From a virus: DNA of 59,252 bases. Position 1 is the stretch's first letter; every line of letters starts with the position of its first letter. Positions 933-30,774 of this stretch are shown piece by piece. The notes beneath the pieces are model-generated. The model was given only the letters and a program-made list of their open reading frames with translations, did not search any database and had not been told where the DNA came from. Location of the stretch: the IMG/VR virus record IMGVR_UViG_3300042975_000012. The stretch is one strand, 5' to 3'. Made by a program: the position numbers and the translations under genes.

Positions 933-3869
933 CTAATCATTGATACGGGCTATAGTTGATGCACTAACCTCCAACATGTCAGCGATGTCCGCCTGAGTAT
1001 AACCATTAGCCAACATAGACTTAGCTCTGGCTATCTTAGCATCACTCAGTCCTTGAGACTGATGGGGCATGGATAGTTCAGTAAGCTTATCTACATTAGC
1101 ATTGGCTACTATCTCTTTCATCATGTTGTTTGTAATAGCACCCGCCTGTATTGCTTCCCATTCAAGAGGGGTAATAGGATTATCTTTAGACCCTATATCT
1201 CTCTTAGATGCCCCTACATCTACACGAGCCTGGGCTAGGCATTGACCACGAAGTTTGCTCTTATGCTCACTATCCATGTTCTTGTTAGCCTCTAACTTTG
1301 TTTTATATACGGCATACCCGAGTGACTGTGCCTGCCGTTCAAGGGGCTTCTTGGAATAGGCCACCTTAATCTTAGCCCGTAGGCTTTCCACCTGGGGGGC
1401 ATACTTCTTAGCAGACTGGGGGGAGTATGTTAACTTAAGGGTGGGGTCTATCATAGCGAGACGGGCCTCGTTACCTAGAGCCTTTAACTTATTAGCATGC
1501 TCGGCATAGATGTTCTCTATAGGATAGTTTCCTTTAGAGATGAGGGTACGAGCATCTGTTGCTTCAGCCATCTTAGAGGACTTAGTCATACGTGTTATAG
1601 TACGTCCAGTCTTCTCCATAATAACTCTACCAGTCTTAGGGTTAATACGATCTGTCTTACGAAGCTCATCATAGGTAGAACCAGTATTACGATAGATGTA
1701 ACGTCCAGTCTTGGGATCTATAGGACCAACTGTCTTATAGTAGATCTTCTTACCAGTACGAGAATCTATCTTACCATCTGTCTCATTAACTTTCTGCAAT
1801 CGACGTTCAGGAATGAGGACCTGAGATTTTGCTTTAGAGATAAGAGTAGATGAACCATGCTTTGTTTTACCATTGGCACCAAGTCCATTATCCTGATACT
1901 CATTCTGAAGACTCTTGATATTAAGTTCAGTCTTAGCTCTACGATAATCAAGATTATGCTTGACCGCATCAATAACAACCATAGAATACTTAGTAGCTCG
2001 AGTTAGTTCCTCGGGACTGGCACCCTTGATTGTCATATCAGTAATAAGATTAGACGCGATACCCATTTCTTTCTGTTTAAACTTATCACCCATTGGTTTA
2101 GCTTTATAAACAGAAACTTTCTTTCCAGTCTTATCGGTTGTGTGACCGATAATAGGATTCGGATATGCATCTGATGGGTCAAAGTTCTTCAGTCCAGGTA
2201 GAGCAGGAGCAGTACGAAGGCCACGGTTGCCACCTTTGTTTGGAACTACAACTACAGAGTCACCATCGAAATCAGCACCAGAAAGCCGCTCAGCCACCTT
2301 ATGATTAATCCCCACCATATCTTTAGGATTCTTACCAACAGCTGCTATAGCAGGCTTAAACGTGTTATTAACAGTAAGTGTAGGAATCTCAAAGATACCA
2401 CCATGTGGGTAGCGAATAAGATTAACTACTTCACCATTCTGATAACCGGGTGCATATATTTCATTCTCCTTCATAGTGGGGAATGGAAGAATAACACGCT
2501 GACTTTGTCTTGGTAGAGCAGCAGCTTTCAAATGCACGGCATCCGAATCACAAGAATTTGAGAAGTTCTCTAACAATTTCTTTTTGATAACAGGATTTGT
2601 TAGTGAATTTATCTCATCAAATTGTGCACGCTTAATATCATAAGCTAATCCCAACTGACGTTTAGCTAAGACACTAGACTGTTTAGACAATACCTGTGAT
2701 GATATAGCTCGATGCCAATCACCCCAAGTACCTTCATCATTCACCTTATTCACTACAGCAAGATGGTCTTTACCATTCTTATCTTTGTAATGATATTGAC
2801 CGCCAGCCATGATAGTCGCACCGAATGGATTAGACATATCAATATCGCCAGCATCAGTCTTCTTCATAGGCTTGAGAACAGAACTATCTTTTCCACCAAG
2901 CATAGGAGTACCCTTATGCTTATTGGTATTGAATATAACATCGACACCAGGTGGGAAGTCAGCAGGGTCACCATACATGGCCATACCCTTAAGATAGTGG
3001 GTACCATCAACACCGATGCGAACCTGAGCATAATGGGATTTACCAAGTGATACATCGGCAACACCTGGTCTAATCTCCATTACACCATCTTTAGCTACGC
3101 CACCTTCTTCTGCATATCGAACTGATATACGCTTTGAAGATAAAGAAGTAGGAGGTTCAGCAGCCCAATAATCACCAGTACCATCTCTTTTATTAGTATG
3201 ACCGGGCAATGATATTTCATCTTGATGAGATATAACATCCTTATATGTAGTATCTGGTGGAGCAAGGACCTTTCGAGTGATAAACTTTCCAGGATTACCA
3301 AGTTCGGGAACCTTAACATAATGAACCGTATAACCTTGGTCCTTGAGCATGGTAATGGCTGAACTTAACTTGGTCGAAGATATCCCATATCCAACTTCAG
3401 TACCTTTACCGATGTCCAAATATGTTTTGGAATCGACATCAGCTTTGACTGCATCAACAGTCTTAGTGAGCTTGGCTTGCCTATCCTTATCATAAGGGAG
3501 CAGCATGTTGCGAACTGTACCACCAGAGACATTAAGTTGTTCAGCAATATTGTCAACCGAATATCCTTTAGCTTTCAGCTTAAGAACTTGATCGCGATTA
3601 TATTGCATCATATAATCTTTGCCAATAGTGGTGTTGTCCCGCAAATATGCGATAGGAACATCAAAATGTTCAGCTATTTGTTTCTCACTAAGACCCGATT
3701 TTTTCAAATCCTGAATCTGTTTATAAACGCCAGTATAATGTTGCGCAGCATCTTCACCAGACATCCAAGGAAATCTTCCAGAATGTGGAATAAGTCCTTC
3801 ATGCGGGCGCCCGGAATGTGCGATATAGTCATCTGACTCGTCTATCATATATAATTCGTCAGAAGTCAT
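933..3869 (-). CDS. Single-polypeptide two-barrel RNA polymerase candidate (YonO-like) with N-terminal and C-terminal HTH modules
   Basis: aa 484-545 VNLIRYPHGG...GINHKVAERLSGADFDGDSVVVVP matches the beta-prime catalytic DPBB (LNRAPTLHR...LHPLVxxAYNADFDGDQMAVHVP); DFDGD is encoded at 2259..2273. aa 284-320 GVDGTHYLKGMAMYGDPADFPPGVDVIFNTN resembles the beta DPBB (GRHGNKGV...EDMP...VDIVLNPL). HTH-like segments at aa 58-80, 101-123 and 955-977. ATG at 3869 has RBS AAGGA. Confidence 0.6.
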   Translation of the reverse strand: MTSDELYMIDESDDYIAHSGRPHEGLIPHSGRFPWMSGEDAAQHYTGVYKQIQDLKKSGLSEKQIAEHFDVPIAYLRDNTTIGKDYMMQYNRDQVLKLKAKGYSVDNIAEQLNVSGGTVRNMLLPYDKDRQAKLTKTVDAVKADVDSKTYLDIGKGTEVGYGISSTKLSSAITMLKDQGYTVHYVKVPELGNPGKFITRKVLAPPDTTYKDVISHQDEISLPGHTNKRDGTGDYWAAEPPTSLSSKRISVRYAEEGGVAKDGVMEIRPGVADVSLGKSHYAQVRIGVDGTHYLKGMAMYGDPADFPPGVDVIFNTNKHKGTPMLGGKDSSVLKPMKKTDAGDIDMSNPFGATIMAGGQYHYKDKNGKDHLAVVNKVNDEGTWGDWHRAISSQVLSKQSSVLAKRQLGLAYDIKRAQFDEINSLTNPVIKKKLLENFSNSCDSDAVHLKAAALPRQSQRVILPFPTMKENEIYAPGYQNGEVVNLIRYPHGGIFEIPTLTVNNTFKPAIAAVGKNPKDMVGINHKVAERLSGADFDGDSVVVVPNKGGNRGLRTAPALPGLKNFDPSDAYPNPIIGHTTDKTGKKVSVYKAKPMGDKFKQKEMGIASNLITDMTIKGASPEELTRATKYSMVVIDAVKHNLDYRRAKTELNIKSLQNEYQDNGLGANGKTKHGSSTLISKAKSQVLIPERRLQKVNETDGKIDSRTGKKIYYKTVGPIDPKTGRYIYRNTGSTYDELRKTDRINPKTGRVIMEKTGRTITRMTKSSKMAEATDARTLISKGNYPIENIYAEHANKLKALGNEARLAMIDPTLKLTYSPQSAKKYAPQVESLRAKIKVAYSKKPLERQAQSLGYAVYKTKLEANKNMDSEHKSKLRGQCLAQARVDVGASKRDIGSKDNPITPLEWEAIQAGAITNNMMKEIVANANVDKLTELSMPHQSQGLSDAKIARAKSMLANGYTQADIADMLEVSASTIARIND

Positions 3870-3886
3870 CAAGTATCCTTATGTAG

Positions 3887-4879: not shown

Positions 4880-4884
4880 AGCGA

Positions 4885-4899
4885 ATATAGTGACTTTTT
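4885..4899 (-). promoter_or_regulatory. Motif B (AAAAAGTCACTATAT)
   Basis: RC reads AAAAAGTCACTATAT. One of 9-10 copies. Confidence 0.4.
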
Positions 4900-5784: not shown

Positions 5785-5838
5785 AAAATATAGTCCTTTT
5801 CAAAAAGTCACTATATTACGCCCACTTTTGTGGTCAAT
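5785..5838. promoter_or_regulatory. Back-to-back motif-B pair (imperfect minus copy, perfect plus copy) followed by a GCCCACTTTTGTGGTCA box
   Basis: aatatagtcctttt/caaaaagtcactatatt is a near-palindrome. The plus-oriented copy at 5803..5817 is opposite to all coding. Confidence 0.45.
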
Positions 5839-5960
5839 TTCAAAAACTTTTTATATGTGTTAAAACCCTATATATATTATTTTACTTAATAATTCTGTAA
5901 GTTTATAAAAAGGGGGTAATTTCTGGCCAAACTGGGCCTAAAAGGCCGTTTTTTGGCTCT

Positions 5961-6039
5961 AAAAGAGTATACTTGCGAGAGGAGTATACTTGCGAGAGCC
6001 CTTCTCGCAACTGTACTCTTCTCGCAAGTATACTCTTTT
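5961..6039. repeat. 79-bp composite palindrome: two direct copies of GAGTATACTTGCGAGA facing two inverted copies
   Basis: aaaagagtatacttgcgaga ggagtatacttgcgaga gccc ttctcgcaactgtactc ttctcgcaagtatactctttt. Candidate origin or operator. Confidence 0.85.
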
Positions 6040-6075
6040 AGCACCTTTTTTGACCATTTTAGTCTACAAAAAATT

Positions 6076-6112
6076 AAAAAGTCACTATATTTTGCCCACC
6101 TTTCTGGCCACT
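6076..6112 (+). promoter_or_regulatory. Second plus-oriented motif B plus GCCCACCTTTCTGGCCA box
   Basis: ttaaaaagtcactatattttgcccacctttctggcca is a direct repeat of the 5801..5838 unit. Confidence 0.45.
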
Positions 6113-8985: not shown

Positions 8986-9363
8986 TCAGATGCGTTTGAA
9001 ATGTAGTCCTCCGGCATCTGGTTTGATACCATTTATCTGCTGTGATATGGTTGAAGAACTCAGATCAAGTGCTTCTGCTGCTTTGTTCTGTGATGAATAT
9101 ACGTCTCCTGTTTCCAGGCACTGTACCACCCATGAAGGCGGTCCCTGACGACTGGATTCAACGGTATAGTTCAATACACCATTATTGATGGCGGGACTAG
9201 CAACGTTTTGGCTACCCATATCGATATCACCCATGGATATGCGGTCATCAATAGTGTTTTTACCAAGAATATAAGCACAAACACCAACTGCTACAACTAC
9301 TCCAGCTCCAATATACCACCACTTATATTGCTTCCAATGCTTCTTTATGGGTTCCTTGTCCAT
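8986..9363 (-). CDS. Membrane-anchored NUMOD1-like HTH protein, paralog 1 of 5
   Basis: Basic N-terminus, TM WWYIGAGVVVAVGVCAYILG, C-terminus VVQCLETGDVYSSQNKAAEALDLSSSTISQQINGIKPDAGGLHF. Confidence 0.6.
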   Translation of the reverse strand: MDKEPIKKHWKQYKWWYIGAGVVVAVGVCAYILGKNTIDDRISMGDIDMGSQNVASPAINNGVLNYTVESSRQGPPSWVVQCLETGDVYSSQNKAAEALDLSSSTISQQINGIKPDAGGLHFKRI

Positions 9364-9392: not shown

Positions 9393-9471
9393 GAAGCAGA
9401 GTTTTTCTTAAGTCCGCGCAATGCTAGGCTTAACAAGTCCGCGCAATGCCAGGCTTGATTGTCTCGGCTTC
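9393..9471 (-). ncRNA. Twin-repeat hairpin cassette E7b (putative structured RNA or attenuator)
   Basis: Outer arms gaagcagag/ctcggcttc. 22-nt direct repeats aagtccgcgcaatgcYaggctt at 9410..9431 and 9435..9456. The RC strand ends in a T14 run (9378..9392). Confidence 0.4.
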
Positions 9472-9491
9472 ATTATAAAAAGATCTCCTCT

Positions 9492-9544
9492 CAAGTACGT
9501 ATTAGCACAAATACTTGACAAGTGCGTATTAGCACAAACACTTG
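9492..9544 (-). ncRNA. Twin hairpins E7a: two adjacent 26-nt stem-loops with identical loops
   Basis: caagtA-cgtattagcacaaa-Tacttg and caagtG-cgtattagcacaaa-Cacttg. The only two differences between the copies are compensatory. Confidence 0.5.
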
Positions 9545-9549
9545 ATAAT

Positions 9550-9575
9550 CCTTTCACTATAGACTATGTATTTTT
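9550..9575 (-). promoter_or_regulatory. Motif A variant (-10 TATAGT)
   Basis: RC reads AAAAATACATAGTCTATAGTGAAAGG. Confidence 0.45.
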
Positions 9576-9970
9576 TACGCAGCCATACAAATGCGCTCAA
9601 AATGGAGACCTCCAGCATTATCTCTTAATCCGTTAAGAGTTTTAGATATATCGTTTGGTGAAACATTAAGCGCCTCTGCTGCTTTACTCTGTGACGAGAA
9701 TACCTCACCCGTTTCAAGACAGCGAACCACCCACGAAGGCGGTCCTTGTCTGTCGGCCTCGACAGTGTAGTTGAGAGTGCCAAGATTGACCATTTGCTGG
9801 GGATCGTGGTTATCATTGCCAACACTCATATCAACCTTGATGTTTGGCGTCTTTTGTCTAGTTAATACATATACTCCAACACCTACTACGACTCCAACCA
9901 CAACTCCTACTCCAACAGTAATATAGGTCTGCTTATACTTCTCCCAATGTATTTTGATTTTCTCGTTCAT
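9575..9970 (-). CDS. Membrane-anchored NUMOD1-like HTH protein, paralog 2 of 5
   Basis: TM ITVGVGVVVGVVVGVGVYVL. C-terminus VVRCLETGEVFSSQSKAAEALNVSPNDISKTLNGLRDNAGGLHF. Confidence 0.6.
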   Translation of the reverse strand: MNEKIKIHWEKYKQTYITVGVGVVVGVVVGVGVYVLTRQKTPNIKVDMSVGNDNHDPQQMVNLGTLNYTVEADRQGPPSWVVRCLETGEVFSSQSKAAEALNVSPNDISKTLNGLRDNAGGLHFERICMAA

Positions 9971-10191: not shown

Positions 10192-10725
10192 TCACTCAAA
10201 TATGCGAATCCATTTCGAGCTATTGAGATTCGTAGTCACTGTTGTTGCAAAATCATCAGGCCATGTATGATCGCTTTGCGCTTTCACACATTTTGCCATC
10301 AACTGTCCTTTATCATTGAATGCAGAATATACATGGTAGCCATGATCCGTGTAGATTCGAGATATACAAGTCGTTCCCAAATGGTTACCCGCCATTAAGA
10401 AGAATGCCATTTTGTCCATATCATTGGTTGGTATACATACCGTTTCGAATATATCCTGATCAATGGCATTATACACACTCCAAGTACCTATAGTTGCCGA
10501 TAGGCTCCGACGATGCTTGTCCGCATAATCAGGACTATCCAATGATGGCATCGGTCCAAAATAAATAGTATTGAAGGGTGGCTCATTCCTCTTGAATATA
10601 GTAGGATTATTAGTAATGGTCTCTGACAGAACATGCATAACATTTTGAATAATCATAGATACAGGTATATTTGTCGTCCTGCTAATTCGTTGAGAGAGTT
10701 CATTTGAATATGACAGTTTGGTCAT
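10192..10725 (-). CDS. Hypothetical protein (177 aa)
   Basis: ORF on the coding strand with RBS AAAGGAACAATT then ATG. Confidence 0.6.
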   Translation of the reverse strand: MTKLSYSNELSQRISRTTNIPVSMIIQNVMHVLSETITNNPTIFKRNEPPFNTIYFGPMPSLDSPDYADKHRRSLSATIGTWSVYNAIDQDIFETVCIPTNDMDKMAFFLMAGNHLGTTCISRIYTDHGYHVYSAFNDKGQLMAKCVKAQSDHTWPDDFATTVTTNLNSSKWIRIFE

Positions 10726-11682: not shown

Positions 11683-11775
11683 GAAGAAGTTGTATAGTTT
11701 TTAAATCCTAAAGTTAGCCCAATTACTCACCATAGGTCACGAGCCTAATTACTCGTTTTTCTATACAACTTCTTC
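11683..11775 (-). ncRNA. Twin-repeat hairpin cassette E3
   Basis: Perfect 15-bp outer arms gaagaagttgtatag/ctatacaacttcttc. Repeats agccYaattactc at 11716..11728 and 11742..11754. Inner ccta/tagg pairing. T-run on the RC strand. Confidence 0.45.
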
Positions 11776-11799: not shown

Positions 11800-11892
11800 T
11801 CACGAACAACTTGCACCAGTAATGTAGTATTCTTTATATGTATGTAAATGCTTCTTAATCTTATCAAGATTAGTTTGGTTGTTGTCATCCAT
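11800..11892 (-). CDS. Mini-ORF (30 aa)
   Basis: Motif B, then RBS GAGGAGTAATT, then ATG. MDDNNQTNLDKIKKHLHTYKEYYITGASCS, translated by hand. Confidence 0.3.
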   Translation of the reverse strand: MDDNNQTNLDKIKKHLHTYKEYYITGASCS

Positions 11893-11907
11893 AATTACTC
11901 CTCAATA

Positions 11908-11922
11908 ATATAGTGACTTTTT
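11908..11922 (-). promoter_or_regulatory. Motif B
   Basis: RC reads AAAAAGTCACTATAT, 17 nt before the ATG. Confidence 0.4.
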
Positions 11923-13909: not shown

Positions 13910-14100
13910 TATTGTTCCTTTTCTTGTATATATTGCTGCAAATATGTCAGATTTGAGGCAACAGTATTAATTAGATTCTCAGAATCCTTAAGTCGACGTT
14001 TCTCAAATACATCTGATGTATCGCCTTGTGCATCTCGTAATGCTTGTTTAAGGTTCATGACTTTCAGTTGAAGTTGTGATATAGTATTAAATGTAATCAT
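13909..14100 (-). CDS. Hypothetical coiled-coil protein (63 aa)
   Basis: ATG at 14100 overlaps the end of 14087..14371. The longer track ORF would overlap by 62 nt. Confidence 0.45.
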   Translation of the reverse strand: MITFNTISQLQLKVMNLKQALRDAQGDTSDVFEKRRLKDSENLINTVASNLTYLQQYIQEKEQ

Positions 14101-14371
14101 CGCCAAAAGTCTTTCTGATAAGCGTACGGATACTTCTATGAGATTCATGATTGTTAGCTCGCAGTTTCACGCTAGTCCATACTGCGTCGGAAACCGTTCG
14201 TGAATAATATGGTTTAATGTACTTCTTCGTCTTTCTATTACGAATAAGACCTATTGGATTTATCTCATAGTTTTCGAAATCTTCGATGACTCGCCATTCT
14301 CGATTATCATGATGTGCCATCAATTCCAAATATACATCTTTATCCACATTAAGTATCTGTTTGATCTTCAT
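14087..14371 (-). CDS. NUMOD4-only protein (homing-endonuclease DNA-binding module without nuclease)
   Basis: WRVIEDFENYEINPIGLIRNRKTKKYIKP. Confidence 0.4.
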   Translation of the reverse strand: MKIKQILNVDKDVYLELMAHHDNREWRVIEDFENYEINPIGLIRNRKTKKYIKPYYSRTVSDAVWTSVKLRANNHESHRSIRTLIRKTFGDDYI

Positions 14372-15273: not shown

Positions 15274-15289
15274 AATTTGTTCCTTTACA

Positions 15290-15304
15290 ATATAGTGACT
15301 TTTT
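15290..15304 (-). promoter_or_regulatory. Motif B
   Basis: RC reads AAAAAGTCACTATAT within TTTACAA...TTGTAAA flanks. Confidence 0.4.
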
Positions 15305-15317
15305 TGTAAAAAATAAA

Positions 15318-15412
15318 GAAGAAGTTGTAATGAATTTTATCCATTATCTCGCATACAATCACGCAAGATAAATCTCGCATACAATCACGCGATTTTTCAT
15401 TACAACTTCTTC
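15318..15412 (-). ncRNA. Twin-repeat hairpin cassette E1
   Basis: Perfect 17-bp outer arms gaagaagttgtaatgaa/ttcattacaacttcttc. 19-nt repeats atctcgcatacaatcacgc at 15346..15364 and 15372..15390. Inner ttatc/gataa pairing. RC tail TTTATTTTTT. Confidence 0.5.
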
Positions 15413-15432
15413 ATTATATGACATGTAAAAAA
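15409..15432 (-). promoter_or_regulatory. Motif A promoter-like element
   Basis: RC reads TTTTTTACATGTCATATAATGAAG. Confidence 0.55.
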
Positions 15433-15436
15433 TGTA

Positions 15437-15856
15437 CTAATTTCTCGAACCAAGGCCTATAATTTCAAAATGTTGACCTAGATAATCTGGTTTCGTTCCA
15501 TTGATAACTTTCGACAAATTAGCTCTGCTTACACCAAGATCTTCCGCAGCAGAACTAATACTATCCCAGATTTCACCCGTTTCAATGCATCGAACTATCT
15601 TAGATAGATGCCCTTGAAAATTGTTTTGGGTAATAGTTGAATTATTAATTATTGGAGAATTAGATATTGACTTTGCTTTAACGATCAGTTCTTGACCTGT
15701 ATCAGCAACATCAATCTTCTTTCCTATAATAATTCCAACTCCTATACTCAATGCAATCACTCCTGCTGAAATATAAACAGTCTTATACTGGTCGAAGTGG
15801 TCTCTAATTCTATCAAGTACAGAATCATACTCGTCTTCATCATTATTTTCAAACAT
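15437..15856 (-). CDS. Membrane-anchored NUMOD1-like HTH protein, paralog 3 of 5
   Basis: Acidic N-terminus, TM ISAGVIALSIGVGIIIG, C-terminus IVRCIETGEIWDSISSAAEDLGVSRANLSKVINGTKPDYLGQHF. Confidence 0.6.
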   Translation of the reverse strand: MFENNDEDEYDSVLDRIRDHFDQYKTVYISAGVIALSIGVGIIIGKKIDVADTGQELIVKAKSISNSPIINNSTITQNNFQGHLSKIVRCIETGEIWDSISSAAEDLGVSRANLSKVINGTKPDYLGQHFEIIGLGSRN

Positions 15857-15871
15857 AATTGTTCCTTTACA

Positions 15872-15886
15872 ATATAGTGACTTTTT
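15872..15886 (-). promoter_or_regulatory. Motif B
   Basis: RC reads AAAAAGTCACTATAT. Confidence 0.4.
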
Positions 15887-15899
15887 TGTAAAAAATAAA

Positions 15900-15980
15900 G
15901 AAGAAGTAGTAAATCCTAAGTCTCCCGCAATCGGGAAAAATAGGTAGCGTCCGCAATCGGATACAGTTTACTACTTCTTC
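15900..15980 (-). ncRNA. Twin-repeat hairpin cassette E2
   Basis: Perfect 14-bp outer arms gaagaagtagtaaa/tttactacttcttc. Repeats ccgcaatcgg at 15925..15934 and 15951..15960, each a mini-hairpin. Inner ccta/tagg pairing. Confidence 0.5.
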
Positions 15981-16000
15981 ATTATAGCGCATGTAAAAAA
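15977..16000 (-). promoter_or_regulatory. Motif A promoter-like element
   Basis: RC reads TTTTTTACATGCGCTATAATGAAG. Confidence 0.55.
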
Positions 16001-16004
16001 TGTA

Positions 16005-16412
16005 TTATTGTCGAGAGCCTACACCTAAGACTTCGAAATGCATTCCACCAGCGCTTTCACTATGTCCATTTATTACTTTTGAAATATCACTAGCTTTGAC
16101 ATCTAAGTCTTCTGCTGCTTCTCGAATACTAGGCCAGATTTCACCCGTTTCAATGCATCGAACTATCTTAGATAGATGCCCTTGAAAATTATTCTGAATC
16201 AAACTTCCGTTGTTGATAATAGCTTCTGTTGAATTGGATATAACATTTGTAGGAAGGTCGTGTGTATCAATCTTCTTTCCTATAATAATTCCAACTCCTA
16301 TACTCAATGCAATCACTCCTGCCGAAATATAAACAGTCTTATACTGGTCGAAGTGATCTTTGACTCTATCCAGTATAGAATCATACTCATCATCGTTATC
16401 ATTGTCAAACAT
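16005..16412 (-). CDS. Membrane-anchored NUMOD1-like HTH protein, paralog 4 of 5
   Basis: Real start is MFDNDNDDEY at 16412 behind AAAGGAACAATT. The N-terminal 50 aa are nearly identical to paralog 3. Confidence 0.6.
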   Translation of the reverse strand: MFDNDNDDEYDSILDRVKDHFDQYKTVYISAGVIALSIGVGIIIGKKIDTHDLPTNVISNSTEAIINNGSLIQNNFQGHLSKIVRCIETGEIWPSIREAAEDLDVKASDISKVINGHSESAGGMHFEVLGVGSRQ

Positions 16413-16427
16413 AATTGTTCCTTTACA

Positions 16428-16442
16428 ATATAGTGACTTTTT
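16428..16442 (-). promoter_or_regulatory. Motif B
   Basis: RC reads AAAAAGTCACTATAT. Confidence 0.4.
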
Positions 16443-16451
16443 GTAAAAAGT

Positions 16452-16548: not shown

Positions 16549-16842
16549 CTATCGCCATGTGATGATATTATTATGTATCCGTTGGATATCGGAATCAGTC
16601 CATTCTGATAATTCGACATCATCCATCCAAGGATATGCAGACTTCAGTAACTCTGGAATATGACGCGTTGTCTTTTTACCGTCGATAACTATCATAACGA
16701 ATGGACCTTTTTTATTACGCCCTCGTGTATACATGGTCAACCGACGAACATCATGTTGTTTTGTTTCTGAATATACATTGCCATCCATATCGATGGTATA
16801 TCCGAAGCATTCCGGAATTGCTGCTGAATGTTCATATGACAT
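16549..16842 (-). CDS. NUMOD4-like small protein (97 aa)
   Basis: IPECFGYTIDMDGNVYS. TAATG overlap with the helicase gene. Confidence 0.4.
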   Translation of the reverse strand: MSYEHSAAIPECFGYTIDMDGNVYSETKQHDVRRLTMYTRGRNKKGPFVMIVIDGKKTTRHIPELLKSAYPWMDDVELSEWTDSDIQRIHNNIITWR

Positions 16843-28496: not shown

Positions 28497-28811
28497 TCAG
28501 ATTTTGATATGCTCATGATGACCAATATGGTCATAAATATCAACTGACGTTTTGGGATCTACGCCATAGTAGGTAAAGGTCACCACATATATTCGGTCAT
28601 CGCCAACAATATTGGTATTCAATAACGCTTTGACTTCATCACGAATATAACCCAAGAACTCAATACGAATATTCTCGATAGCGACATTCTTAACTGCTGA
28701 AGATAGAAGTTTATTTTCTTCGAATTCTTTGAGTAATAATTCTTTGACAACAACTTCGGGTGTTTTACCTTGTACCGGATTACTGTATGAATCATATATA
28801 TTAAATACCAT
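28497..28811 (-). CDS. Hypothetical protein (104 aa)
   Basis: Start MVFNIYD at 28811, with TAATG overlap with the upstream gene. Confidence 0.55.
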   Translation of the reverse strand: MVFNIYDSYSNPVQGKTPEVVVKELLLKEFEENKLLSSAVKNVAIENIRIEFLGYIRDEVKALLNTNIVGDDRIYVVTFTYYGVDPKTSVDIYDHIGHHEHIKI

Positions 28812-29056
28812 TATTCTTGTCCTTTGATATTGCAATCTATATAATTGTCAACTACATGACAATTATATAGAGTCTCAGATTTGTCCTTGTAACTAAATTT
28901 CTCACCGGGCGCATATACTCGAGAGTAATATACTTCATCGTAGTCGTGCGCTTTGCTAGTATACAGGAAAAGTAGGGTGACAGTTGCTAGCAACAAAACA
29001 ACCCATGTAACTACAATAGTAATGGCAAGCCCCATATATTTTTTTGTTGGTTTCAT
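28811..29056 (-). CDS. Small N-terminally anchored membrane protein, paralog of 29667..29912
   Basis: ...ITIVVTWVVLLLATVTLLFLY..DYDEVYYSRVYAPGEKFSYK...YNCHV...DCNIKG vs the partner. MKGIIM artefact removed. Confidence 0.55.
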   Translation of the reverse strand: MKPTKKYMGLAITIVVTWVVLLLATVTLLFLYTSKAHDYDEVYYSRVYAPGEKFSYKDKSETLYNCHVVDNYIDCNIKGQE

Positions 29057-29088: not shown

Positions 29089-29178
29089 GAAGAACTAGTA
29101 TTTATTAATCCTAAATCACGCTGACTCACGCAAGATAGGTAACACGCTGACTCACGCATATCTAAATATTAGTTCTTC
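29089..29178 (-). ncRNA. Twin-repeat hairpin cassette E4
   Basis: 16-bp outer arms gaagaactagtattta/taaatattagttcttc (1 mismatch). 16-nt repeats cacgctgactcacgca at 29117..29132 and 29143..29158. Inner ccta/tagg pairing. Confidence 0.45.
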
Positions 29179-29199
29179 ATTATAAGACATGTAATTTTT
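29175..29199 (-). promoter_or_regulatory. Motif A promoter-like element
   Basis: RC reads AAAAATTACATGTCTTATAATGAAG. Confidence 0.55.
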
Positions 29200-29220
29200 G
29201 CAATTTTACAAAGGCGAAAT

Positions 29221-29245
29221 ATACAGGACCGTGTAGGTCCTGTAT
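29221..29245 (-). terminator. Intrinsic terminator with CTACACGG apex
   Basis: RC reads ATACAGGACCTACACGGTCCTGTAT then ATTTCGCC; weak T tail. Confidence 0.5.
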
Positions 29246-29250
29246 ATCTT

Positions 29251-29550
29251 TTAAAAAGTCTTTACATCTTTTAGTTCCGTATTGATTTTATCAATAACAT
29301 ACTTACGATAATCATCTTCAAGACCTGTATTCAGAATAAAATCTTTTACGGAATCATATTGCACTTTTGTATTAATATAATGAGATCCAGCCATAATTGC
29401 TCCAACTGTTCCAGCGGTCACTATTACGCATAGTGCTGTTGCTTCAGCTGTTACTTTTATGGATTGTTCATTAGTTTTATACCAAGTTGCAAATTTATTC
29501 TTAAAAGATACTTTTTCTTTTTGATCTTCAATTTGAGTATTGTCAGTCAT
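29251..29550 (-). CDS. Single-pass membrane protein (99 aa), paralog of 12264..12545
   Basis: MKGNIM leader artefact removed. See partner. Confidence 0.55.
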   Translation of the reverse strand: MTDNTQIEDQKEKVSFKNKFATWYKTNEQSIKVTAEATALCVIVTAGTVGAIMAGSHYINTKVQYDSVKDFILNTGLEDDYRKYVIDKINTELKDVKTF

Positions 29551-29585
29551 GATATTTCCTTTCATAGAAATTTATAATGATAGTA

Positions 29586-29609
29586 CTTCATTATAAGGTA
29601 TGTAATTTC
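29586..29609 (-). promoter_or_regulatory. Motif A promoter-like element
   Basis: RC reads GAAATTACATACCTTATAATGAAG. Confidence 0.5.
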
Positions 29610-29666
29610 TATAGTTATCGATATCAATATTGAGGACTATGGGATTATCCGAATATAGTATTCGTA

Positions 29667-29912
29667 TTAACGACTAGTACCTTTCATATTGCAATCAAGG
29701 TTTTCTTTGGTGACTGTACAGTTAAACAAAGTGTCTGCACCATTTCGAAAGCTGAACTTCTCACCAGGTTCATATGTACGATGGTAATATACCGAATCAT
29801 AATCATTACTTTTATCTAAATATAGGTATGCCAGCGTAGCGGTTGAGCCAAGCAGTACAATCCATGTTACGATGAGAGTGATTGCCGTAGTGATATATTT
29901 ATTGTTTTTCAT
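29667..29912 (-). CDS. Small N-terminally anchored membrane protein, paralog of 28811..29056
   Basis: See partner. Confidence 0.55.
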   Translation of the reverse strand: MKNNKYITTAITLIVTWIVLLGSTATLAYLYLDKSNDYDSVYYHRTYEPGEKFSFRNGADTLFNCTVTKENLDCNMKGTSR

Positions 29913-29988
29913 CTTTATTTCTGCCTTTCAATATTACAAATGACATGATCTTCAGTTACTTTACTAATATATTATATGTAAAAATAAT

Positions 29989-30077
29989 GAAGAACTAGTA
30001 AAAGATATCCTTAAAATGCATTAATACGCATAATAAGGGGAAGCGTTAATACGCTTGGTCCCAATTACTAGTTCTTC
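29989..30077 (-). ncRNA. Twin-repeat hairpin cassette E5
   Basis: Perfect 13-bp outer arms gaagaactagtaa/ttactagttcttc. Repeats gcRttaatacgc at 30018..30029 and 30043..30054. Inner cctta/taagg pairing. Confidence 0.5.
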
Positions 30078-30097
30078 ATTATAGAATATGTAAAAAA
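30074..30097 (-). promoter_or_regulatory. Motif A promoter-like element
   Basis: RC reads TTTTTTACATATTCTATAATGAAG. Confidence 0.55.
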
Positions 30098-30101
30098 TAA
30101 T

Positions 30102-30201
30102 GAAGAATTAGTAATTCCTAAAATATCCTCAAAATACGTCTGAGACGCGTTATGAGGGGGGGCGTCTGAGACGCGCGGTCCTAAAGGATTACTAATTCTT
30201 C
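30102..30201 (-). ncRNA. Twin-repeat hairpin cassette E6 (directly upstream of E5 in transcription order)
   Basis: 17-bp outer arms gaagaattagtaattcct/aggattactaattcttc (1 bulge). Palindromic repeats cgtctgagacgcg at 30137..30149 and 30163..30175. Inner cctca/tgagg pairing. Confidence 0.5.
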
Positions 30202-30222
30202 ATTATAAGACATGTAATTTTT
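30198..30222 (-). promoter_or_regulatory. Motif A promoter-like element
   Basis: RC reads AAAAATTACATGTCTTATAATGAAG. Confidence 0.55.
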
Positions 30223-30226
30223 GTAC

Positions 30227-30637
30227 TCAGCCTGATGTAAGACCCAAAGCTTTGAAGTGTAATCCATTAGTACTTTCTTTGTGTCCGTTTATAACTTTGG
30301 ATATATTATTAATAGGAATACCCAAATCTTCAGCTGCCTCAGTTATGCTAGACCAAATTTGACCCGTTTCAATACATTGTACAATCTTTCGCTGTCGACC
30401 AGTAAAAGTATTATTTATTATGGTCGAATTATCTCCCGAAACCGTAAAGATTTTAATTTTAGACTCAACGTTATCTTCGACGTTAATTGTTGGGATGGTT
30501 TTTTGATGTTCATTCAAATGAAAATAGATGCCAATACCAACAATAACTATGGCACCGATACTCAAGCAATAATCTTTCCAATGCTCTTGAAAATGAGTCG
30601 TAACTTTATCTATAGTTGTTTCTGTTTTCTCATCCAT
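30227..30637 (-). CDS. Membrane-anchored NUMOD1-like HTH protein, paralog 5 of 5
   Basis: TM LSIGAIVIVGIGIYF. C-terminus IVQCIETGQIWSSITEAAEDLGIPINNISKVINGHKESTNGLHF. MKGIIM artefact removed. Confidence 0.6.
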   Translation of the reverse strand: MDEKTETTIDKVTTHFQEHWKDYCLSIGAIVIVGIGIYFHLNEHQKTIPTINVEDNVESKIKIFTVSGDNSTIINNTFTGRQRKIVQCIETGQIWSSITEAAEDLGIPINNISKVINGHKESTNGLHFKALGLTSG

Positions 30638-30668
30638 AATAATTCCTTTCAATATAATAGATAAAAAA

Positions 30669-30752
30669 AAGAAGATGTTGTAAGGAGTGACGAACTCTTA
30701 CAACAGCGGTTTCGTTTAGGAAACTACATTCGCATCACACTGTTATCTTCTT
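30669..30752 (-). ncRNA. Leader hairpin cassette E8 (two different inner hairpins, no twin repeat) followed by a T8 run
   Basis: Outer aagaagat/atcttctt. Inner gttgtaag/cttacaac (8 bp) and gtttc/gaaac. Confidence 0.4.
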
Positions 30753-30774
30753 CATTATAGAGTATGTATTTTTT
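30750..30774 (-). promoter_or_regulatory. Motif A promoter-like element
   Basis: RC reads AAAAAATACATACTCTATAATGAAG. Confidence 0.55.

Follow-up and report, generated by a model that had tools for sequence, protein, structure and literature searches.

Introduction

The PeSL cassettes of T4-like phages combine a conserved promoter with a stem-loop, are found in hyperplastic regions of the genome, and serve to insulate modules and as recombination points (PMC2839356, PMC4122927). Analysis of a 59,252-nucleotide (nt) stretch of viral DNA (IMG/VR record IMGVR_UViG_3300042975_000012; this whole stretch is referred to as the window, and all coordinates are those of the whole stretch) has revealed three compact elements within 29089-30222, designated E4, E5 and E6, each of which carries a promoter-like motif followed by two near-identical hairpins inside one closing helix. 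These cassettes are members of a family of small phage units, not described so far, that run from a promoter to a terminator and for which PeSL is the nearest concept. We consider it on balance probable that they are PeSL-like promoter/terminator cassettes making a Y-shaped RNA, with the twin hairpins as the specificity element.

The likeness to PeSL is evidenced by short conserved intergenic cassettes with a promoter and a terminator-like stem-loop, dense among small orphan genes, by a conserved promoter in every cassette, by indels and replacements that end in cassettes and, presumably, by the insulation of modules. There are also differences: 1) the stem-loop is located upstream of the promoter in PeSL but downstream of it here, and would thus itself be transcribed from that promoter; 2) the PeSL promoter is sigma-70-like with -35 and -10 elements, whereas the promoter-like motif of the cassettes has no -35; 3) the stem encloses here a conserved Y domain with two or three identical hairpins and is linked to one gene family; 4) PeSL occurs in T4-like myoviruses, in contrast to the phage studied here, a siphovirus of the 1706/oengus/actinophage supercluster.

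Other systems share single features with the cassettes. In the guanidine-II (mini-ykkC) riboswitch (RF01068) and other twin-hairpin RNAs, a 5' leader contains two small, near-identical hairpins that are closely spaced; the cassette loops, in contrast, are not ACGR, vary between cassettes and sit inside a terminator-closing helix, and the cassettes have no Rfam match. Lambda nut/boxB and HK022 put are promoter-proximal hairpins of early leaders upstream of terminators, with put comprising two adjacent stem-loops; unlike these sites, which share sequence within one phage, each cassette has its own hairpin, and no N-like protein was identified. In ToxI, antiQ and phage pseudo-ToxI, tandem direct RNA repeats are followed by a terminator and their copy number shifts by slippage; the cassettes differ in their period (24-27 nt vs. 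about 35-36), in having hairpins in a Y scaffold as units and in lacking a downstream endoribonuclease gene. As for the linked gene family, phi29 p16.7 is an early protein of about 130 amino acids (aa) that is anchored in the membrane by its N-terminus and carries a helix-turn-helix (HTH) DNA-binding domain at its C-terminus. The protein encoded next to the cassettes resembles it in size, anchor and C-terminal HTH, and has the fold of homing-endonuclease DNA-binding modules, but it shows no sequence relation to p16.7 and, in contrast to I-HmuI and I-TevI, carries no nuclease domain. We know of no dedicated neighbouring repeat element for p16.7 or for the I-HmuI/I-TevI modules.

Results and discussion

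Three twin-hairpin cassettes built on one plan

E4, E5 and E6 all lie on the minus strand, the sense strand of the genes in this region. In each of them, a promoter-like motif (motif A) leads into a segment of 89-100 nt that is closed by a helix, P1, and followed by a U-tract. The segment opens with GAAGAAyTAGTA and closes with the reverse complement of this sequence, yielding a P1 of 13-17 base pairs (bp), after which comes an A/U-rich tail (AUUAUUUUUU in E5 and E6, AUAUUUUC in E4). Inside each P1 there are two near-identical hairpins, 25-26 nt apart, with copy B enclosed by a second helix, P2. The features are given below, with the minimum free energy (MFE) of the predicted RNA and its z-score (z) vs. 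shuffled sequence.

30202..30222, minus strand: motif A (promoter-like) of E6, AAAAATTACATGTCTTATAAT
30102..30201, minus strand: predicted E6 cassette RNA with P1, hairpin A, P2 and hairpin B; MFE -38.2 kcal/mol, z = -6.5
30162..30175, minus strand: E6 hairpin copy A, CGCGTCTCAGACG; GCGUC-UCA-GACGC; exact 13-nt repeat, period 26
30136..30149, minus strand: E6 hairpin copy B, CGCGTCTCAGACG; enclosed by P2 CCUCA/UGAGG (30123-30157)
30078..30101, minus strand: U-tract of E6 (AUUAUUUUUU) merging into motif A of E5 (TTTTTTACATATTCTATAAT)
29989..30077, minus strand: predicted E5 cassette RNA; MFE -37.4 kcal/mol, z = -8.4
30041..30056, minus strand: E5 hairpin copy A, AAGCGTATTAACGCTT; AAGCGU-AUUA-ACGCUU
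30016..30031, minus strand: E5 hairpin copy B, ATGCGTATTAATGCAT; AUGCGU-AUUA-AUGCAU; enclosed by P2 CCUUA/UAAGG
29667..29912, minus strand: gene for an 81-aa membrane protein, downstream of E5
29179..29199, minus strand: motif A of E4
29089..29178, minus strand: predicted E4 cassette RNA; MFE -30.7 kcal/mol, z = -4.5
29141..29158, minus strand: E4 hairpin copy A, TGCGTGAGTCAGCGTG; 16-nt exact repeat, period 26
29115..29132, minus strand: E4 hairpin copy B, TGCGTGAGTCAGCGTG; enclosed by P2 CCUA/UAGG; stem UUGCGU/GCGUGA with three G-U pairs
28811..29056, minus strand: gene for an 81-aa membrane protein, paralogue, downstream of E4

Motif A of E5 (30078-30097) overlaps the U-tract of E6, and nothing else lies between the two cassettes. 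An earlier note on this DNA had described three twin-repeat cassettes with E6 and E5 in tandem, in the order promoter, E6, promoter, E5, gene 29667..29912, and E4 preceding gene 28811..29056; the coordinates confirm this arrangement, and the two genes, said there to be paralogs, indeed encode products that are 55% identical (E = 4e-26). The flanks that it described as common to E5 and E6, namely GGGACC/GGACC, a C-rich linker and ATTTTRAGGATAT, are all present. In contrast to its claim that the displayed repeats of E5 and E6 differ completely, both have the form GCGU-loop-ACGC and only the loops differ (AUUA vs. CUCAG). GCGTATTAAYGC is present twice in E5 with a period of 25, and the pair flanking the repeat core changes from A-U in copy A to U-A in copy B, with pairing kept. 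The window has eight twin cassettes rather than six, namely E1-E6 plus X1 and X2, the latter two using a variant of the E-type chassis.

The repeats in E4-E6 are more than chance. In the window we found 17 exact direct repeats of >=10 nt with periods of 15-45, vs. 2.25 in dinucleotide shuffles, and the six with a period of 25-27 are all within cassettes. The period is 26 nt in 8 of 9 E-type cassettes, independent of hairpin length.

Base pairing is selected on the gene-sense strand

All six E cassettes adopt one predicted Y fold, consisting of P1, hairpin A and a P2 capped by hairpin B, with z between -4.5 and -8.4 vs. shuffled sequence, while X1 and its orthologues fold as P1 plus two adjoining hairpins; of the 16 cassettes analysed, most gave a two-hairpin fold. 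Covariation in P1 is seen at three positions (GC/CG/UA, AU/UA and AU/UA). P2 is found as CCUA/UAGG (E4), CCUUA/UAAGG (E5), CCUCA/UGAGG (E6), CUCA/UGAG and UUAUC/GAUAA, so that the change between E5 and E6, already recognized as compensatory in the earlier note, is joined by further variants that also stay paired. The hairpin stems contribute at least seven compensatory double changes, either between copies of one cassette or between orthologues, as exemplified by the X1 stems (CAAGUG/CACUUG, CAAGUA/UACUUG and CAGGUG/CACCUG), by those of X2 and of X2' in the relative L173 (C..G vs. U..A, and in L173 X2' additionally GU..AC vs. GC..GC), and by those of cassette C3 (GCGUCG/CGAUGC vs. GCGUCA/UGAUGU). 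Because the cassettes aligned too poorly in their 3' half with MAFFT to yield a trustworthy covariance model, pairs were counted per sequence instead.

The sense strand folds better than its complement in 12 of the 16 cassettes, and the predicted structures contain 45 G-U pairs on the sense strand vs. 15 on the antisense strand; E4 and E2 are good RNA hairpins but poor DNA palindromes. Both the compensatory changes, which are found in P1 and P2 as well as in the hairpin stems, and the G-U bias show that base pairing is selected on the gene-sense strand.

A promoter-like motif precedes every cassette

The consensus of motif A is TTTTTTACAT-N4-TATAAT|GAAGAAG, which can also be rendered as TTTACAT-N4-TATAAT followed by GAAGAAG or GAGA. 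About 17-20 sites are present in the window, exclusively on the gene-sense strand and before genes or cassettes, with one before every cassette; examples, all on the minus strand, are given below.

31111, 30768, 30216, 30092, 29604, 29193, 28482, 16539, 15995, 15427, 12990, 12590, 11790, 8536, 6725, 6518, 4873, minus strand: motif A sites

A sigma-70 consensus scan did not call motif A, in which TATAAT is present with no -35 at 16-18 nt spacing. The motif is retained in L175, L176, L179 and L180 and extends from this gut phage to Qui of Arthrobacter, where it precedes other genes too; it was not found in FP_oengus. In 6 of 9 cassettes checked, P1 starts at the exact nucleotide after TATAAT, suggesting that transcripts start at that G; we infer this start, as well as the firing of motif A, from the position of the helix. 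Motif A may be the promoter of the phage's own 979-aa YonO/crAss-like RNA polymerase (933..3872, minus strand); for a YonO-like polymerase the literature gives no promoter (PMC5467207).

In E4, E5, E6 and both Qui cassettes the complementarity continues into the hexamer. In E5, E6 and the Qui cassettes an inverted repeat (ATAATG ... CATTAT) reaches past P1, in the window pairing 29983-29988 with 30078-30083 (E5) and 30096-30101 with 30202-30207 (E6). An RNA started after TATAAT would not include the 5' half of this hexamer-extended inverted repeat; the extension could strengthen termination of read-in transcripts or be a DNA-level feature.

Relatives gain, lose and exchange cassettes

The phage is a siphovirus that encodes a large primase-polymerase, DUF6353 proteins and a 979-aa putative RNA polymerase resembling YonO and RNA-dependent RNA polymerase (RdRP). 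Its terminase, polymerase and RdRP-like 979-aa protein place it with the Lactococcus 1706/Faecalibacterium FP_oengus/actinophage supercluster rather than with T4-like myoviruses; the marks of this supercluster are the primase-polymerase, the DUF6353 proteins and the 979-aa protein (bioRxiv 10.1101/842583). Cassette-bearing assemblies were reached via exact protein look-ups. They add at least seven further cassettes, and Qui, a soil phage in culture, carries two.

In the near-identical genomes L110-L119, E5 and E6 are unchanged, while E4 together with its two genes is missing in six of them, within L112-L119. L111 (3894-3960) has a one-copy E4 with an exact 26-nt deletion, which in this single Logan assembly may be genuine or may stem from collapsed repeats in the assembly. 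The relative represented by L120 and L173, whose proteins are about 79-86% identical, has E5 without E6 in L120, with a T>C change in copy B that renders the E5 copies identical, and in L173 three cassettes (C1-C3) in tandem behind one HTH gene, all with a period of 26; in L173, E2 occupies the locus of E1 in the window, and orthologues of X1 and X2 are present. L166-L168 have kept E3 with or without the neighbouring genes and lack E2 and the HTH genes. X1 and X2 orthologues are also present in L165 and L174, in reversed order in L174, the L165 helicase being about 67% identical. The indels and replacements between relatives (L110-L123, L166-L168, L173) end in cassettes, and these genome comparisons show cassettes being gained, lost and swapped at conserved flanks. 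The more distant L175, L176 and L169-L171 either have a compact early region or carry HTH genes that no twin cassette accompanies; in L176, a twin-like pair is seen in a leader.

The X1 orthologues of L173, L165 and L174 display compensatory stem changes. Their apical sequence is UUUGUGCUAAUACG twice in the window and UUUACGCUAAUGUG twice in L173, and in L165/L174 it is UUUGCGCUAAUGCG and UAUGCGCUAAUGCG (also written as GCGCUAAUGCG twice). As judged from these substitutions, the two copies are shown to evolve in concert between lineages.

These comparisons bear on the possibility, which we regard as unlikely, that the cassettes are only promoter/terminator insulators and 5'/3' stabilisers, with hairpins that are duplicated filler without a specific partner. 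Other leaders (30768, 28482, 16539, 6725 and 4873) do share the design of P1 plus U-tract around unrelated inserts, a unit of 24-27 nt is simply duplicated in tandem in the X-type cassettes, E4 also occurs in a one-copy variant and no targets were found, all of which fit filler. The E-type linker, however, is unrelated to either flank, and the E-type pairs are therefore not a simple recent duplication; filler also fails to account for the same lineage-specific substitutions in both X1 copies of three lineages, and for a twin or triple design, a 26-nt period and an HTH linkage that persist from gut phages to an Arthrobacter phage.

Both Qui cassettes illustrate this persistence. Downstream of gp172, motif A (TTTACAccgcgTATAAT) is followed by P1 (GAGAACCCCUC/GAGGGGUUCUC) and then AUUAUUUUUU; inside are two copies of AACGAUCAUUGCGAUAGUU, 26 nt apart, and a third hairpin, with the loop AUUGC in all three. 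Downstream of gp75, which like gp172 belongs to the HTH gene family, motif A leads to a 17-bp P1 enclosing three copies of GUGAAAAAGAUCGCwCUGACGAUCACAC, and then to a U-tract; the flanking stems of the copies differ and stay paired (UGGUG/CACCA, AGUG/CACU). Since the same arrangement is present in Qui and motif A in L175/L176, the promoter motif, the P1-closed leader and the HTH gene with its hairpin array are, on the evidence of these genomes, old features of the phage group and no local accident.

The earlier note had proposed a specificity element diversifying on a conserved chassis, and duplication scars without conservation in relatives as its refutation. Period and scaffold are conserved in L173, L174, L165 and Qui, so the repeats are not such scars. 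The chassis, comprising the promoter motif, P1, the P2/linker CCUAU...UAGGAU, the U-tract and the 26-nt period, is conserved, and the variable hairpins and concerted copies fit the proposal; the part that concerns a target is without a match in the searches described below.

The cassettes are linked to a membrane-anchored HTH gene

Five paralogous genes in the window encode proteins of 125-139 aa with an N-terminal transmembrane (TM) helix and a C-terminal HTH like that of I-HmuI/NUMOD (TM-HTH genes N1-N5). They and the remaining cassettes are positioned as follows.

30227..30637, minus strand: TM-HTH gene N3, directly upstream of E6; Pfam PF22083 at 31.2 bits vs. a cut-off of 27; phrog_27818
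16005-16412, minus strand: TM-HTH gene N1, before E3
15900..15980, minus strand: E3 cassette, CCGAUUGCGG twice, behind N1
15437-15856, minus strand: TM-HTH gene N2, before E2
15318..15412, minus strand: E2 cassette, GCGUGAUUGUAUGCGAGAU twice, behind N2
11683..11775, minus strand: E1 cassette, behind a truncated TM-HTH gene remnant (11800-11892)
9575-9970, minus strand: TM-HTH gene N4, before X1
9478..9555, minus strand: X1 cassette, two complete 27-nt hairpin units, behind N4
9393..9471, minus strand: X2 cassette, AAGCCUrGCAUUGCGCGGACUU twice with a U14 tail; in tandem after X1 and before N5
8986-9363, minus strand: TM-HTH gene N5, after X2

Four of the five TM-HTH genes are directly followed by one or two cassettes, and of the six cassette loci in the window, five are preceded by a TM-HTH gene or a remnant. 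The cassette groups of L165, L173 and L174 and both Qui cassettes likewise follow TM-HTH genes, with one L173 group behind a truncated remnant. At the level of gene order, these data show linkage of the cassettes to the TM-HTH gene. The remnant before E1 (11800-11892, minus strand) comprises 30 codons (MDDNNQTNLDKIKKHLHTYKEYYITGASCS) and runs into the E1 promoter; at the same place in L173 there is a shorter remnant, then E2 instead of E1.

The protein family matches phrog_27818, and tblastn finds it in the Arthrobacter phages Qui and Paella. No HNH, GIY-YIG or LAGLIDADG domain is present in the TM-HTH protein, the N-terminal half of which consists of the transmembrane helix and a disordered linker. 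The AlphaFold2 (AF2) model has pLDDT >93 at residues 80-135, and the closest solved folds in Foldseek are 8b6e, a DNA-binding sCTP, and the modules with which I-HmuI (1u3e) and I-TevI (1i3j) bind DNA. In the tandem modules N1-E3 and N2-E2 (15278-16445, minus strand), nucleotide identity of about 100% in the leader, the TM segment and the first part of the HTH domain alternates sharply, as in a mosaic, with about 50% in the linker, the HTH helices and the cassette core.

Recognizing that this is the fold of a binder of duplex DNA, we weighed whether the twin repeats are double-stranded DNA sites (operators or tethers) for the membrane HTH protein encoded upstream, one site per paralogue, with bound protein blocking or tuning cassette transcription or tethering phage DNA to the membrane, and P1 and P2 being mere leader and terminator. 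The resemblance of a confidently modelled HTH domain to binders of double-stranded DNA, the gene adjoining its site in the window, L165, L173, L174 and Qui, and the HTH helices and repeat core (with the linker) being among the divergent parts of N1-E3/N2-E2 all speak for such sites, which would also account for copy identity, cassette specificity, concerted change, the fixed 26-bp spacing and the linkage; in addition, an ATTGCG core is common to E3, X2 and the Qui gp172 cassette. They would nevertheless leave unexplained: 1) why the repeats all form hairpins, with flanks that vary from copy to copy but remain complementary; 2) the stems that rely on G-U pairs, and the poor DNA palindromes of E4 and E2; 3) the X-type arms, which measure 11, 14 and 16 nt although the outer stems around them are conserved; 4) the P2 covariation; 5) cassettes that outnumber the HTH genes, with one HTH gene preceding arrays of different cassettes. 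We hold DNA sites to be a serious rival explanation, if on balance an improbable one, and a less unlikely one than filler.

Small open reading frames (ORFs) that look like fragments of NUMOD4-type homing endonucleases and have no nuclease domain are found in the window at 14087-14371 and 16549-16842 (minus strand) and in L165 at 10213-10527; for the L165 protein PF07463 is on record, and the two window ORFs were assigned by visual inspection of their translated sequences. Taken with the TM-HTH family, these NUMOD4-like ORFs suggest that homing-endonuclease genes have repeatedly been domesticated or have decayed here.

Searches for matches and targets

No Rfam match at gathering score was obtained for the whole window, with only chance-level matches at E up to 10, the families covered including guanidine-II, TwoAYGGAY and known phage RNAs, and a tRNA/tmRNA search of the window found nothing. 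Megablast and blastn of the region against the phage collection gave no match. Scans of IMG/VR with the promoter motif and a gapped cassette pattern returned chance matches or cassette-free relatives only, and the IMG/VR scan for the E4 twin gave zero matches; among JGI metagenome contigs, the pattern promoter...TTCTTC...T-run was found at 41 loci, with no twin cassette. The displayed repeats and their complements are present nowhere else in the window at up to 2 mismatches. The host-site search that the earlier note had suggested was made with the E2 19-mer only, as exact matches in 185,579 species genomes (one per species): the single match, where about four are expected by chance, is in a GC-rich, apparently coding stretch of a Porphyromonadaceae metagenome-assembled genome and looks like chance.

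These results are pertinent to the idea of an anti-defence decoy or riboregulator, i.e. small RNAs that imitate RNAs of the host or base-pair with them (mRNAs, antitoxin repeats or hairpins of CRISPR repeats, for example) or switch between two-hairpin and rod-like folds for readthrough control. Its appeal lies in an early region made of small accessory genes, with a weak Acb2/Tad1-like match about 3 kb downstream in L174, in the cassette-specific diversification, and in identical quasi-palindromes that permit pairing of copy A with copy B, the MFE fold of X2 being of that kind. We consider it improbable nonetheless, given that no host or phage match was found in the above searches, that repeats of 10-27 nt and linkers of 0-17 nt are unlike ToxI (about 36 nt) or CRISPR repeats, that PADLOC revealed no toxin or Cas gene nearby, and that conservation across phages of Firmicutes and Actinobacteria favours a phage-encoded over a host-specific partner. 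With no target found, an sRNA seed or host-RNA decoy stays conjecture.

Several known element classes were tried and rejected: type III antitoxin RNA (the period is 24-27 nt, not about 35, and neighbouring proteins, where a ToxN/AbiQ-type endoribonuclease would be expected, have no PADLOC toxin match); a CRISPR mini-array or solitary repeat (repeats of 10-27 nt vs. about 28-37 nt in CRISPR, linkers of 0-17 nt, and the one tested sequence without a genome match); a tRNA-like or anticodon-loop mimic (loops of 3-6 nt, no CCA end); small ORFs within the cassettes (not conserved); integron attC-like sites (no integrase); a retron (no reverse transcriptase); and a CsrA sponge (one GGA motif per cassette in most cases).

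A probable composite regulatory unit of the early region

We surmise that PeSL-like cassettes with a Y-shaped RNA would act as small composite regulatory units of a hyperplastic early region. In each unit, a phage-specific promoter motif is directly succeeded by a segment of 80-105 nt whose two ends pair with each other (P1), and then by a U-rich tract. P1 with the U-tract resembles an intrinsic terminator, and would end transcripts from the cassette's own promoter as well as from the upstream gene, presumably insulating the modules, while the conserved flanks would serve as recombination points for the gain, loss and exchange of cassettes and genes. The twin hairpins would present the same ligand twice to a partner that is itself bivalent or dimeric, and the TM-HTH protein encoded upstream is the leading candidate for this functionally coupled partner. 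We speculate further, and more tentatively, that the HTH gene diversifies with the hairpin, such that a membrane-anchored HTH derived from homing endonucleases and the hairpin (as RNA, extruded DNA hairpin or duplex) form orthogonal cognate pairs controlling or localising early transcription units or phage DNA at the membrane, with motif A as the first promoter defined for a YonO/crAss-type polymerase of the supercluster.

Several observations weigh against the proposal of a Y-shaped RNA with a specificity element. With regard to the partner, the HTH fold is of the type that binds double-stranded DNA, which argues against the reading of RNA hairpins; E4 has no adjacent HTH gene, the eight cassettes are set against five HTH genes, and no twin cassette follows the HTH gene of L175 or that of L176. 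With regard to structure, the MFE folds of X2, L173_C2 and L174_X2 differ from the two-hairpin fold, an A-C mismatch interrupts the sense-strand P1 of E4 and of L120 E5, and the loops of the two L173 C1 hairpins differ, strict identity thus not always being kept. E4 has a weak U-tract behind P1 (AUAUUUUC) and L173 C1 has none, and a simple terminator scan gave no call because P1 encloses a long insert. Transcription start, termination and the RNA itself are all read from the DNA.

If the proposed Y-shaped RNA is correct, the cassettes would add a structured RNA class without Rfam match, with clear covariation and with copies that are identical while the family diversifies, and would extend the idea of mobile promoter/terminator cassettes embodied by PeSL from T4-like myoviruses to a very different phage group. 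They also tie the unexplained, widespread phrog_27818, a membrane anchor with an endonuclease-type HTH, to a specific neighbouring nucleic-acid element. Recognizing that Qui of Arthrobacter globiformis is a cultured phage carrying two modules, the polymerase, HTH binding and RNA function are all directly testable.

Other elements nearby

The window harbors further repeated elements. A 14-mer, AAAGTCACTATATT, is present in seven exact copies, vs. about one match (<=2 mismatches) in shuffles, mostly located after the terminator of a cassette and ahead of the next gene's ribosome-binding site.

4884-4897, minus strand: 14-mer AAAGTCACTATATT
5804-5817, plus strand: 14-mer AAAGTCACTATATT
6078-6091, plus strand: 14-mer AAAGTCACTATATT
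11907-11920, minus strand: 14-mer AAAGTCACTATATT
15289-15302, minus strand: 14-mer AAAGTCACTATATT
15871-15884, minus strand: 14-mer AAAGTCACTATATT
16427-16440, minus strand: 14-mer AAAGTCACTATATT

This 14-mer could be an operator or a second promoter class. Two inverted copies flank a repeat region at 5.8-6.1 kb, and the long non-coding stretch between them contains, at 5940-6060 (minus strand), 17-nt repeats and inverted copies thereof (GAGTATACTTGCGAGAG / CTCTCGCAAGTATACTC), a block that could be an origin or a regulatory region.

Another class of leaders with the design of P1 plus U-tract is found in the window at about 30660-30768 (minus strand), in L120 at 5800-6050 and in L123 at 382-500. 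Leaders of this class contain two unrelated hairpins, GUUUC-CUAAAC-GAAAC and GUUGUAAG..CUUACAAC, and L120 has two diverged tandem copies of the leader with a compensatory GUUUC/GAAAC vs. GGUUC/GAACC. In L174 (15325-15640), the palindrome CATAAATTGTCACCGTGACAATTTATG is present five times in a 300-nt intergenic region and looks like an operator set.

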